In this document: piece after piece, positions 9,080 through 42,919 of the stretch
Numbering within the stretch: the first letter of the stretch is position 1
Layout of the letters: each line of letters opens with the position of its first letter
Virus record (IMG/VR): IMGVR_UViG_2778261457_000003
Span: 2,217 to 66,216 of that record
DNA from: a virus
Lineage: Duplodnaviria; Heunggongvirae; Uroviricota; Caudoviricetes
Length of the DNA stretch: 64,000 bases
Reading direction: 5' to 3' (one strand)
Program-made: the position numbers and the translations under genes
The notes under the pieces: model-generated
What the model saw: the letters and a program-made list of their open reading frames with translations, nothing else
What the model was told of the DNA's origin: nothing
Databases searched by the model: none

Positions 9080-9320
9080 AACAGCTGTGAATATTCAGAC
9101 TCTAAAATCGCTTACAGTCAATGTTTCTGTCGCGTATAGTCAACAATAAATCGCGTGCAGTCAACAATAAATCGTGCACAGTCAACATAAAATCGCGTAT
9201 AGTCAATGTTGATCCCATTTCAGGCCAGTAATGACGCGGCTTACAGCGATCCGGGATCTTCTTTGGATCTTCCTAGGTTCTCTTTAGGATCTGTTTATTG
9301 GATCTATGCTGTGGATAAGT
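9080..9320. other. oriR: oriR replication origin: iterons at ~22-bp spacing, five GATC-containing heptamers, DnaA box TGTGGATAA
   Basis: gtcaac-type repeats at 9100-9200, GATC cluster at 9240-9300, DnaA box at 9310-9318, all upstream of repA. Confidence 0.75.
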
Positions 9321-37145: not shown

Positions 37146-38339
37146 GTGACCTGGGACGATCACAAGAAGAATTTTGCTCGCCTGGCGCGAGATGGTGGTT
37201 ACACCATCGCACAGTATGCCGCCGAGTTTAATCTTAACCCTAATACCGCACGTCGTTATCTCCGTGCCTTCAAAGAAGACACCAGGACTACGGACAGCCG
37301 CAAGCCAAATAAGCCAGTCAGGAAGCCACTAAAAAGCATGATCATTGATCACTCTAATGATCAACATGCAGGTGATCACATTTCGGCTGAAATAGCGGAA
37401 AAACAAAGAGTTAATGCCGTTGTCAGTGCCGCAGTCGAGAATGCGAAGCGCCAAAATAAGCGCATAAATGATCGTTCAGATGATCATGACGTGATCACCC
37501 GCGCCCACCGGACCTTACGTGATCGCCTGGAACGCGACACCCTGGATGATGATGGTGAACGCTTTGAATTCGAAGCTGGCGATTACCTGATAGATAACGT
37601 TGAAGCGCGGAAGGCCGCGCGCGCTATGTTGCGTCGGTCCGGGGCCGATGTTCTGGAAACCACTCTTCTGGAAAAGTCTCTTTCTCATCTCCTTATGCTG
37701 GAGAACGCCAGGGATACGTGTATTCGCCTAGTGCAGGAAATGCGCGATCAGCAAAAAGACGATGATGAAGGTACTCCGCCTGAATACCGTATCGCGAGCA
37801 TGCTAAACAGCTGTTCCGCGCAGATAAGCAGCCTGATCAACACCATTTACAGCATCCGGAATAACTATCGAAAAGAAAGCCGGGAGGCGGAAAAGCACGC
37901 TTTATCTATGGGGCAAGCTGGCATTGTTAAGCTGGCATACGAACGAAAGCGTGAAAATAACTGGTCAGTGCTGGAAGCGGCTGAATTCATCGAGGCGCAT
38001 GGAGGAAAAGTGCCGCCCCTGATGCTGGAGCAAATCAAAGCCGATCTGCGTGCTCCTAAGACCAATACCGATGATGAGGAAAACCAAACAGCATCTGGCG
38101 CTCCATCACTTGAAGATCTGGATAAAATCGCGCGAGAACGGGCCGCCAGCCGCCGCGCTGATGCGGCATTGTGGATTGAGCATCGTAGAGAAGAAATTGC
38201 CGATATCGTCGATACAGGTGGTTATGGTGATGTCGATGCGGAAGGCATATCAAACGAAGCATGGCTTGAACAGGATCTGGACGAAGACGAGGAGGAAGAC
38301 GAAGAAGTTACCCGCAAACTGTACGGGGATGATGATTAA
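37146..38339 (+). CDS. pacA: terminase small subunit (pac recognition)
   Basis: 397-aa ORF containing the pac site in its 5' region; acidic C-terminus. Confidence 0.8.
37339..37524. other. pac: pac packaging site: two clusters of TGATCA/TGATCG hexamers (4 + 3-4) about 100 bp apart
   Basis: tgatcattgatcactctaatgatcaacatgcaggtgatca and tgatcgttcagatgatcatgacgtgatcac ... tgatcg; each hexamer contains a Dam GATC site. Confidence 0.8.
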
Positions 38340-41274: not shown

Positions 41275-41340
41275 TGTCAAACAACTATGAAAAACAATCC
41301 AGTTTTTGGCTGGTGGAGTTGGATTTTTCTCTCAAAATTT

Positions 41341-41357
41341 ATTGCTCTAATAATTCT
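41341..41357 (+). promoter_or_regulatory. C1 operator-like site ATTGCTCTAATAATTCT
   Basis: consensus match in the immunity region next to loxP. Confidence 0.55.
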
Positions 41358-41400
41358 TGATTTTTATGCGCAGCTGGACGTAAACTCCTCTTCAGACCTA

Positions 41401-41434
41401 ATAACTTCGTATAGCATACATTATACGAAGTTAT
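41401..41434 (+). other. loxP: loxP site
   Basis: exact ATAACTTCGTATA-GCATACAT-TATACGAAGTTAT. Confidence 0.97.
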
Positions 41435-41449
41435 ATTAAGGGTTATTGA

Positions 41450-41600
41450 ATATGATCAATTTACCTGTAAATCCATACAGTTCAATACCTTAGCAGGTCA
41501 AATAGTGATCACTTGATCATTTGATCAAGGTTGCGCTACGTAAAATCTGTGAAAAATTGGCGGTGTTAGTCCTACAGATTTCGCGTAGCGCACTTAGCAC
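41450..41600 (+). promoter_or_regulatory. cre upstream control region with four clustered GATC sites and an ~18-bp inverted repeat
   Basis: tgatcaatt, gtgatcacttgatcatttgatcaagg; inverted repeat gcgctacgtaaaatctgt ... acagatttcgcgtagcgc. Confidence 0.45.
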
Positions 41601-41623
41601 CACCAATCAATCAGAGGTGAAAA

Positions 41624-41845
41624 ATGGGATATTCAACTGCTAAAGTGTCCACTCATCTTGAGCTTGAGAAAAACCGTGGTTACTGGCGGGCAAAAGGGTT
41701 TGATCGTGATAGTTGCCAACTGTCATTATCGCGCGGTGAAGAGAAAATAGAACGCACGCGCGGTCGCTGGCGTTTCTATGACGAGAACCATAAACAGGTA
41801 AAGGCAGAGCCGATCCTGTACACTTTACTTAAAACCATTATCTGA
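41624..41845 (+). CDS. hypothetical small protein between loxP and cre
   Basis: 73-aa ORF with strong RBS (cagaggtgaaaaATG). Confidence 0.4.
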   Translation: MGYSTAKVSTHLELEKNRGYWRAKGFDRDSCQLSLSRGEEKIERTRGRWRFYDENHKQVKAEPILYTLLKTII

Positions 41846-41852
41846 GTGTTAA

Positions 41853-42884
41853 ATGTCCAATTTACTGACCGTACACCAAAATTTGCCTGCATTACCGGTC
41901 GATGCAACGAGTGATGAGGTTCGCAAGAACCTGATGGACATGTTCAGGGATCGCCAGGCGTTTTCTGAGCATACCTGGAAAATGCTTCTGTCCGTTTGCC
42001 GGTCGTGGGCGGCATGGTGCAAGTTGAATAACCGGAAATGGTTTCCCGCAGAACCTGAAGATGTTCGCGATTATCTTCTATATCTTCAGGCGCGCGGTCT
42101 GGCAGTAAAAACTATCCAGCAACATTTGGGCCAGCTAAACATGCTTCATCGTCGGTCCGGGCTGCCACGACCAAGTGACAGTAATGCTGTTTCACTGGTC
42201 ATGCGGCGGATTCGAAAAGAAAACGTTGATGCCGGTGAACGTGCAAAACAGGCATTGGCGTTCGAACGCACTGATTTCGACCAGGTTCGTTCACTCATGG
42301 AAAATAGCGATCGCTGCCAGGATATACGGAATCTGGCATTTCTGGGGATTGCTTATAACACCCTGTTACGTATAGCCGAAATTGCCAGGATCAGGGTTAA
42401 AGATATCTCACGTACTGACGGTGGGAGAATGTTAATCCATATTGGCAGAACGAAAACGCTGGTTAGCACCGCAGGTGTAGAGAAGGCACTTAGCCTGGGG
42501 GTAACTAAACTGGTCGAGCGATGGATTTCTGTCTCTGGTGTGGCTGATGATCCGAATAACTACCTGTTTTGCCGTGTCAGAAAAAATGGTGTTGCCGCGC
42601 CATCTGCCACCAGCCAGCTATCAACTCGCGCTCTGGAAGGGATTTTTGAAGCAACTCATCGATTGATTTACGGCGCTAAGGATGACTCTGGGCAGAGATA
42701 CCTGGCCTGGTCTGGACACAGTGCCCGTGTCGGAGCCGCGCGAGATATGGCCCGCGCCGGAGTTTCAATACCGGAGATCATGCAAGCTGGTGGCTGGACC
42801 AACGTAAATATTGTCATGAACTACATTCGTAACCTGGATAGTGAAACGGGGGCAATGGTGCGCCTGCTGGAAGATGGCGATTAG
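41853..42884 (+). CDS. cre: Cre tyrosine site-specific recombinase
   Basis: 343 aa starting MSNLLTVHQNLPALPVDATSDEVRKNLMDMFRDRQAFSEHTWKMLLSVCRSWAAWCKL; catalytic R...H-x-x-R...Y context present; loxP about 450 bp upstream. Confidence 0.97.
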   Translation: MSNLLTVHQNLPALPVDATSDEVRKNLMDMFRDRQAFSEHTWKMLLSVCRSWAAWCKLNNRKWFPAEPEDVRDYLLYLQARGLAVKTIQQHLGQLNMLHRRSGLPRPSDSNAVSLVMRRIRKENVDAGERAKQALAFERTDFDQVRSLMENSDRCQDIRNLAFLGIAYNTLLRIAEIARIRVKDISRTDGGRMLIHIGRTKTLVSTAGVEKALSLGVTKLVERWISVSGVADDPNNYLFCRVRKNGVAAPSATSQLSTRALEGIFEATHRLIYGAKDDSGQRYLAWSGHSARVGAARDMARAGVSIPEIMQAGGWTNVNIVMNYIRNLDSETGAMVRLLEDGD

Positions 42885-42902
42885 CCGTTCATTTGCGCTT
42901 GA

Positions 42903-42919
42903 TTGCTCTAATTATTTGA
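42903..42919 (+). promoter_or_regulatory. C1 operator-like site ATTGCTCTAATTATTTG
   Basis: consensus match just after the cre stop. Confidence 0.5.

Follow-up and report, generated by a model that had tools for sequence, protein, structure and literature searches.

The loxP–cre control region of a P1-like element and a conserved palindrome found beside Cre-type recombinase genes

The loxP–cre interval and its annotated features

The DNA considered here is a continuous stretch of 64,000 nucleotides from a tailed phage, referred to below as the window, in which the recombination site loxP and the recombinase gene cre are separated by 418 bp. Over positions 41380-41900 the identity to phage P1 is 99.8%, and P7 and many P1-like phage-plasmids match at 97-98%. 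The match to the P1 genome record AF234172 is 99.8% over 483 nt, and a single offset of +41417 maps all of its features to window coordinates (Table 1). Within the loxP–cre interval the window differs from P1 at one base, and Cra has T5 where other strains have A5. Judged by this identity, the interval corresponds to the already known cre control region of P1, and for P1 itself nothing is added here. The position of loxP relative to cre is the same as in P1, every annotated element is present and the intervening open reading frame likewise encodes 73 aa. The window diverges from classical P1 elsewhere, in the plasmid-replicon region.

Three records describe the interval. X03453, the cre sequence of Sternberg (1986), lists pR1, pR2 and pR3, a “pot. 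ORF1 (aa 1-73)” and both ribosome-binding sites. AF234172, the P1 genome (Lobocka et al. 2004), names the open reading frame cra, with a “putative cre associated function”, and gives three “Dam methylation sites within the regulatory region of cre”, the promoters P3cre, P2cre and P1cre, a LexA site and the promoter P2coi. In the P7 record, all four GATC sites of the cluster discussed below and the LexA box are annotated.

Table 1. Features of the loxP–cre region in window coordinates
Feature	Position	Strand	Basis
loxP (13-8-13)	41401..41434	.	Exact sequence; annotated in X03453 and AF234172
GATC site 1, adjoining the P2coi -10	41454..41457	.	AF234172, “Dam methylation site 1 within the regulatory region of cre”
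P2coi, sigma-70 promoter, leftward across loxP towards coi/c1	41458..41485	-	AF234172, offset +41417
LexA (SOS) box containing CTGTAAATCCATACAG	41463..41482	.	Annotated in P1 and P7; CTGT-N8-ACAG in the sequence
Three GATC over two alternative pR1 -35 hexamers TTGATC (41513-41518, 41521-41526)	41507..41526	+	Sequence and records
pR1 (= P3cre): -35 TTGATC, -10 TAAAAT at 41541-41546	41521..41546	+	AF234172, X03453
Inverted repeat, 19-nt arms, 23-nt loop; family core 41534-41590	41532..41592	.	Sequence; family searches
cra Shine-Dalgarno AGAGGTG	41613..41619	+	Sequence; X03453, putative rRNA binding site just 5' of ORF1
cra (ORF1), 73 aa	41624..41845	+	ORF list, X03453, AF234172, homologues
pR2 (= P2cre), within cra; -35 TTGATC 41700-41705 holds GATC 41702	41700..41729	+	AF234172, X03453
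pR3 (= P1cre), 3' end of cra	41817..41841	+	AF234172, X03453
cre, 343 aa, tyrosine recombinase	41853..42884	+	PF00589, E 9e-33; AF234172

The LexA box and P2coi both lie inside the interval and had gone unmentioned in the original prediction for this DNA. The CTGT-N8-ACAG palindrome CTGTAAATCCATACAG overlaps P2coi and has the form of a LexA box, and it is kept as CTGGTTATCCATACAG in a Klebsiella P1-like locus (L007). Further out, sequences of the type ATTGCTCTAATAA at 41341-41356 and 42902-42918 flank the lox–cre module, and resemble the operator of the P1 repressor C1. Isolated matches of the size of loxP also occur in unrelated public records, namely H23, H24 (Lactococcus phage Q33) and H84 (the end of a Pseudobutyrivibrio plasmid), and these look like engineered scars or vector carry-over.

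GATC sites and the cre promoters

Six GATC sites are found in the interval, at 41454, 41507, 41515, 41523, 41702 and 41812, against 1.9 expected in 418 bp (P ~0.012). The original prediction placed four of them within 80 bp; the four are present, and fall within 73 bp (41454, 41507, 41515 and 41523). This cluster divides into one site adjoining the -10 hexamer of P2coi and three over the alternative -35 hexamers of pR1. The triple at 41507-41526 spans 20 bp and is the tightest in the 64-kb window, where comparable triples occur only at 37340, which is the pac site, and at 9248. When 285 GATC sites were placed at random, some triple within 20 bp arose in ~46% of trials. The GATC numbers alone are thus weak, and the case is instead carried by annotation and by conservation in relatives.

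In this respect, the Dam-sensitive promoter context that had been proposed is correct and was previously known. The GATC sites are annotated as Dam sites in AF234172 and in P7, and TTGATC is the annotated -35 hexamer of both pR1 and pR2. GATC accordingly lies inside a promoter hexamer at 41513-41518 and 41521-41526 (pR1), and again at 41700-41705 (pR2). The title of Sternberg et al. (1986) itself refers to the regulation of cre by DNA methylation. Because GATC is embedded in these -35 hexamers, methylation by Dam would be expected to modulate both pR1 and pR2. X03453 marks the pR1 hexamers as “putative”, and their -35/-10 spacing is poor, at 14 or 22 nt. A consensus promoter scan of the region found no strong promoter, pR1 included, as would suit the poor spacings and a recombinase gene, whose expression is expected to be weak. 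On that scan, pR1 is a weak promoter.

The IS10 transposase promoter pIN and the phage Mu mom promoter are known to be Dam-controlled. As in those systems, GATC sits in or beside promoter hexamers of the cre region, where expression would be tied to the methylation state and hence to replication. Unlike in pIN and mom, GATC here falls in the -35 hexamers (TTGATC) of two promoters, for which we rely on published work as to the effect of methylation. In contrast to Dam-controlled promoters such as mom, we know of no OxyR-like partner for pR1 or pR2.

Two other GATC-rich segments of the window deserve mention. At 37340-37524, two groups of four GATC lie within the terminase gene pacA and constitute the P1 pac cleavage region (AF234172). 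At 9211-9304, six GATC occur in 94 bp, five of them in 57 bp. The DNA of this second segment is common to phi456, SJ46 and MH422554 and is not found in classical P1, so that the plasmid-replicon region of the window differs from that of reference P1; the segment is probably an origin.

The cra gene

The open reading frame between the inverted repeat and cre had been described as well initiated and as ending 8 bp before cre. The first part stands, with the ATG following AGAGGTG, and the second needs a small correction, as 7 nt separate the TGA from the cre start. The proposal that the frame is a gene is borne out, since it is annotated as cra or ORF1 and is conserved under purifying selection. 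Cra belongs to phrog_804 (E 1e-34). Its homologues, with identities as low as 61%, are restricted to the P1-like elements of Escherichia, Salmonella, Klebsiella and Cronobacter. Their alignment holds 34 invariant columns, including ELEKNRGYWRAKG and VKAEP.LYTLLK. Against divergent orthologues the dN/dS of cra is 0.06-0.27, with dS saturated, and that of cre in the same comparison is 0.03-0.08; purifying selection of this kind argues that the frame encodes a protein. Between P1 and P7, cra has accumulated three non-synonymous and no synonymous changes. Shortened or frameshifted alleles are frequent in the P1 clade proper, with one 41-aa form present on 115 contigs. CRISPRi and earlier deletions have shown cra to be dispensable for plaque formation.

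Searches of Cra against Pfam, NCBIfam and PDB sequences returned no match. Its AlphaFold model is of moderate confidence (pLDDT 69) and consists of a helix followed by a four-stranded sheet, for which Foldseek found no significant neighbour in the PDB (best E 0.56). The 73-aa protein is named “creatininase” by NCBI/nr (P0003, P0006, P0007 and others). As this label has no support from family or fold, it is evidently an annotation error that has spread from the gene symbol cra.

In divergent P1-like elements (L007:1698-3004, L009 and L012), a 68-aa open reading frame and a 356-aa gene lie between the inverted repeat and cra. The 356-aa gene (orf356) overlaps cra by ATGA in all three, is absent from the P1 clade proper and belongs to phrog_7674, homologues of which are widespread in Proteobacteria. 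At the rst site of Tn4651, the Cre-like TnpS works with a partner, TnpT. The idea that orf356 encodes a TnpT-like accessory protein was considered and is unsupported, its homologues being named only “UvrB/UvrC motif-containing” or hypothetical.

The proximity of cra to cre raises the question of whether cra serves its neighbour, either as a cis-acting translational device, by way of re-initiation at the cre ATG 7 nt further on, or as a regulator of cre/loxP. The 7-nt gap between the cra stop and the cre start is kept in four lineages (P1, L007, L009 and L012), the ribosome-binding site annotated for cre in X03453 overlaps the cra stop codon, and every Cra found is upstream of cre, so that translational coupling of the two genes is plausible from their arrangement. 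A dedicated role of either kind is nevertheless unlikely. The promoter pR3, within the 3' end of cra, can give cre mRNA without cra. In ten viral loci a 131-aa open reading frame (phrog_20152; e.g. L193:448-843, L196 and L248) has been inserted between cra and cre, and the two are therefore not adjacent in those P1 variants. The common frameshifted and shortened alleles, and the three-to-none ratio of changes between P1 and P7, also speak against it, as do the Cre-like genes that occur elsewhere without cra and the absence of any match of Cra to a DNA-binding family or fold. Coupling of cra to cre would thus be possible but not required, and in P1 itself cra may, we infer, be under relaxed constraint. 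Purifying selection points to a real protein in Cra, albeit one that can be dispensed with. In P1 proper it may be a remnant, given that in the divergent relatives cra shares an ATGA overlap with the 356-aa gene that precedes it.

The inverted repeat in P1

The two 18-mers originally proposed as an inverted repeat are correct, and their arms extend to 19 nt. These arms (41532-41550 and 41574-41592) are complementary at 17 of 19 positions and enclose a loop of 23 nt. There is no annotation of the repeat in the X03453, AF234172 or P7 records. Folded as RNA, the repeat reaches -30.2 kcal/mol (z = -4.6 against shuffled sequences). Both strands give a hairpin of high stability (-30.2 and -26.6 kcal/mol, z ~-4.5).

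Two roles had been suggested for this repeat, a protein-binding site or an RNA attenuator. For P1, the second is disfavoured. The -10 hexamer of pR1 (41541-41546) lies within the left arm, and the RNA from pR1 would therefore start in the loop and, lacking the left arm, could not form the hairpin. A terminator scan of 41300-41950 found no terminator-like site, and CTTAGCACC rather than a T-run terminator follows the right arm. The genes to the left of loxP are on the other strand, leaving no plus-strand gene upstream of loxP. A scan with Rfam 15 gave no match at the repeat (the best was mir-137, with 18.8 bits and E 0.57), and nothing was found when 12 related loci were scanned. As a protein-binding site, the repeat is both viable and favoured, for reasons that become apparent from its relatives.

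A family of palindromes

By sequence comparison, the P1 inverted repeat belongs with a palindrome that is widespread and that, in many bacteria, is found in the company of genes for Cre-like recombinases. Members of the family have arms of about CGCTACGTGAAWTCTG and a fixed span of 57 nt, with the consensus CGCTACGTGAAATCTG, then 25 nt, then CAGAATTCACGTAGCG. In a search of plasmids, a 74-bp piece containing the repeat was the only part of the region to match ~320 large Klebsiella IncHI1B/IncFIB plasmids, where it falls in an unannotated gap near psiA. Searching again with the Klebsiella copy returned ~1900 records. A degenerate arm pattern, for which spans of 45-64 nt were allowed, gave at least 120 matches in each of the genome and viral collections. 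Among the matches listed, 104 of 126 have a span of exactly 57 nt despite the wider range allowed, and they are therefore not chance matches. A search of a paper collection with the arm sequence returned only unrelated primers.

The gap near psiA was inspected in two of the Klebsiella IncHI1B/IncFIB plasmids (L004:3223-4167 and L005:3234-4225). Over ~950 bp it has no listed gene; besides the palindrome it holds AAAAGTTACTTTT motifs in repeated copies and small hairpins resembling terminators.

The protein-binding reading is favoured because the sequence of the arms is conserved far more strongly than the pairing of one arm with the other, although the invariance of the arms is in part a matter of ascertainment, many arm positions having been fixed by the search pattern. 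Pairing at positions 8/50 and 9/49 is no better than with shuffled partners (z 1.0 and -0.1). At positions 12/46 and 13/45 it is better (z 3.8 and 4.8), and 12/46 is mismatched in 17 of 38 recombinase-linked elements. The Klebsiella plasmid copies contain one T-A to A-T swap. The arms are also not equivalent, in that the gene-distal arm usually holds the better -10 hexamer (TAAAAT or TGAAAT, compared with TGAATT or CGAAAT on the other arm). P1 and P7 have kept the asymmetry of the arms, but their loop runs the opposite way round from that of other members, a difference of 14-17 bits when scored with a loop weight matrix.

Across the family, action of the repeat in RNA has some features in its favour. 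The transcript could fold into a leader hairpin, with effects by attenuation, by RNase III cleavage or by hiding cra or cre from translation. The fold itself is very stable. Pantoea-type modules share a conserved TATCAT box upstream, close to the lox-like site, and a transcript starting there would hold both arms. In many loops a T-rich run comes after a small GC hairpin, and arm mismatches on the sense strand lean towards G-T over A-C (36 as against 21). Set against this are the location of the pR1 -10, the lack of a terminator-like site or an Rfam match and the opposite orientation of the genes left of loxP, described above for P1, together with the uncompensated variation at 8/50, 9/49 and 12/46 and the flipped loop of P1 and P7. 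An RNA-level function is, on balance, improbable, and the palindrome is instead read as a double-stranded promoter/operator cassette and a candidate site for the binding of some factor.

Candidate factors were sought by comparing the arms with known binding sites, namely ParB box A, CRP, FNR, OxyR, CpxR, sigma-32, sigma-E, SlmA, KOPS, dif/cer and ssoA CS-6 sites. In each case the resemblance is partial or confined to a single lineage, and these candidates were set aside. An ArgR box was likewise rejected, as the putative Arg box in the literature is not bound by ArgR and is located across loxP, towards c1.

Genomic settings of the palindrome

Among the matches listed, 28 of the 105 genome loci and 97 of the 120 viral loci have a tyrosine recombinase gene starting just downstream of the palindrome. 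The recombinase start is most often found +30 to +39 nt from the palindrome; it is at +262 in the P1 type, where cra intervenes. In Pantoea, Erwinia, Enterobacter and relatives the recombinase is Cre-like and has 340-346 aa, and in Buttiauxella it is a plasmid recombinase of ~250 aa; a half element is present on IncX plasmids. A lox-like 13-8-13 site is situated 46-102 bp upstream of the palindrome, and the segment between the two is rich in GATC, either as GGATCCGG.CCGGATCC or as a P1-like triple GATC. The conserved layout of the module is thus a lox-like site, a GATC-rich segment, the palindrome with its 57-nt core and the recombinase gene. In P1 it is cra that begins 33 nt after the core, and in Klebsiella P1-like elements the 68-aa open reading frame begins 34 nt after it; the Cre-like genes of Pantoea and Erwinia start at the same ~33-nt spacing as P1 cra. 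The order differs in Alteromonas, where the palindrome is followed by ~227 nt, the lox-like site and then the recombinase. Here ~340 nt, with the lox-like site among them, separate the palindrome from the recombinase ATG, so that the distance to the start codon is not fixed in all modules.

The association is not exclusive. Approximately 70% of the genome copies among the matches listed are not beside a recombinase, and are found instead with a cupin gene, with DUF1345, in the leading region of Klebsiella IncHI1B plasmids and in ~210-bp dispersed repeats of Pseudomonas. Pantoea ananatis LMG 2665 has at least four palindrome loci, and the Pseudomonas copies are at unrelated loci. In E. coli, copies are on plasmids only.

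In Pseudomonas and Lysobacterales (L050, L072, L086, L105, L110, L136, L039 and L074), the 57-nt core is central within a ~210-bp palindromic repeat with the ends CTCAGAGGCTGTGAAAAAA ... TTTTTTCACAGCCTCTCAG. The loci are unrelated, one of them being just upstream of recX (L110).

The nearness of the palindrome to the crossover site suggests another function, that of an accessory, architectural site at which a bound host factor biases Cre-type recombinases towards resolution, comparable to cer and psi for Xer. The palindrome is close to the lox-like site in every Cre-type module examined, even with the changed order of Alteromonas, and it precedes ~250-aa plasmid tyrosine recombinases that lie beside partition genes. 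The cer site of ColE1 (ArgR/PepA) and the rst site of Tn4651 likewise have a conserved cis-element ~50-230 bp from the crossover site of a tyrosine recombinase. Unlike the elements of cer and rst, however, the palindrome is also found without any recombinase, with many copies having none nearby. To our knowledge, and again in contrast to cer and rst, no accessory protein is known for the palindrome. For Cre in vitro, the 34-bp site is sufficient. The loxP-601 substrate of MacDonald et al. (2008) included 236 bp to the right of loxP and so covered the repeat; with this repeat-containing loxP fragment, PepA and ArgR had no topological effect in vitro (MacDonald et al. 2008). An architectural role of this kind is accordingly doubtful, and we would give it little credence.

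Palindromic repeats may also be dispersed for their own sake, as are the REP/REPIN, ERIC and Correia elements, and the P1 copy could be a selfish repeat of the MITE or REPIN type without a function of its own. The several copies per Pantoea genome in unrelated intergenic settings, the many loci in Pseudomonas and Lysobacterales at which the palindrome forms the centre of a larger repeat, and the REPIN-like pattern of two conserved inverted arms around a variable spacer would fit such an origin; REP/REPIN, ERIC and Correia elements likewise have conserved inverted arms, a variable centre and multiple intergenic copies, and sometimes promoter signals. We consider it improbable, given that the spacing to recombinase start codons and lox-like sites is conserved across recombinases of only modest identity, that the arms are retained while flanks and loop diverge and that the asymmetric -10-like hexamer points at the gene. 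The palindrome further differs from REP/REPIN, ERIC and Correia elements in its tight link to recombinase genes and in having no Rfam family, and its arm sequence is not known to match any element of these classes.

A model for the loxP–cre control region

The interval is therefore best regarded, with fair assurance, as a loxP–cre control region that probably works as in P1, and the repeat within it as an ancestral promoter/operator cis-element of Cre-type modules. Three weak sigma-70 promoters, pR1, pR2 and pR3, would read rightwards into cra and cre, the first two under the influence of Dam. The LexA box would act on the leftward promoter P2coi, which it overlaps and which reads across loxP towards coi. 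As the first gene of the pR1 transcript, cra would itself contain pR2 and pR3.

The inverted repeat would in turn be an ancestral cis-element of Cre-type recombinase modules. In this palindromic cassette, the gene-distal arm is predicted to supply the -10 hexamer of a promoter that drives the first downstream gene. The conserved arms are most likely bound by some factor, as a putative operator that would keep expression of the recombinase low. The first gene in P1 is cra, which at 33 nt from the cassette would occupy the spacing held by Cre-like genes in Pantoea and Erwinia.

A wider proposal can be put forward more tentatively, and at somewhat less than even confidence. The palindrome may be an undescribed functional cis-element of Cre-type and plasmid tyrosine recombinase modules across the Gammaproteobacteria, bound by a host factor and tying recombinase expression or recombination to replication or to the methylation state.

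Implications for Cre-type recombinases

Cre/loxP is among the most used tools of genetics, and the native control of cre has barely been studied. The residual interest of the interval lies in the conserved palindrome family, the function of which we infer. The palindrome has escaped annotation, and its association with Cre-type genes and lox-like sites extends over Pantoea, Erwinia, Enterobacter, Alteromonas and P1-like phage-plasmids. A published pipeline for the target sites of Cre-type recombinases allowed only 8-bp gaps, and target-site searches of this kind would thus have missed the palindrome.

Were the palindrome to serve as operator or accessory site, it would offer a handle on how these recombinases stay low and timed, and a marker for new pairs of recombinase and target site. 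One could then also ask whether the module is older than cra and the 356-aa gene found before cra in relatives, both having been inserted into it later. Should a cis-element bound by a host factor prove to be the true description, the palindrome would bear on how Cre in vivo resolves multimers rather than creates them.
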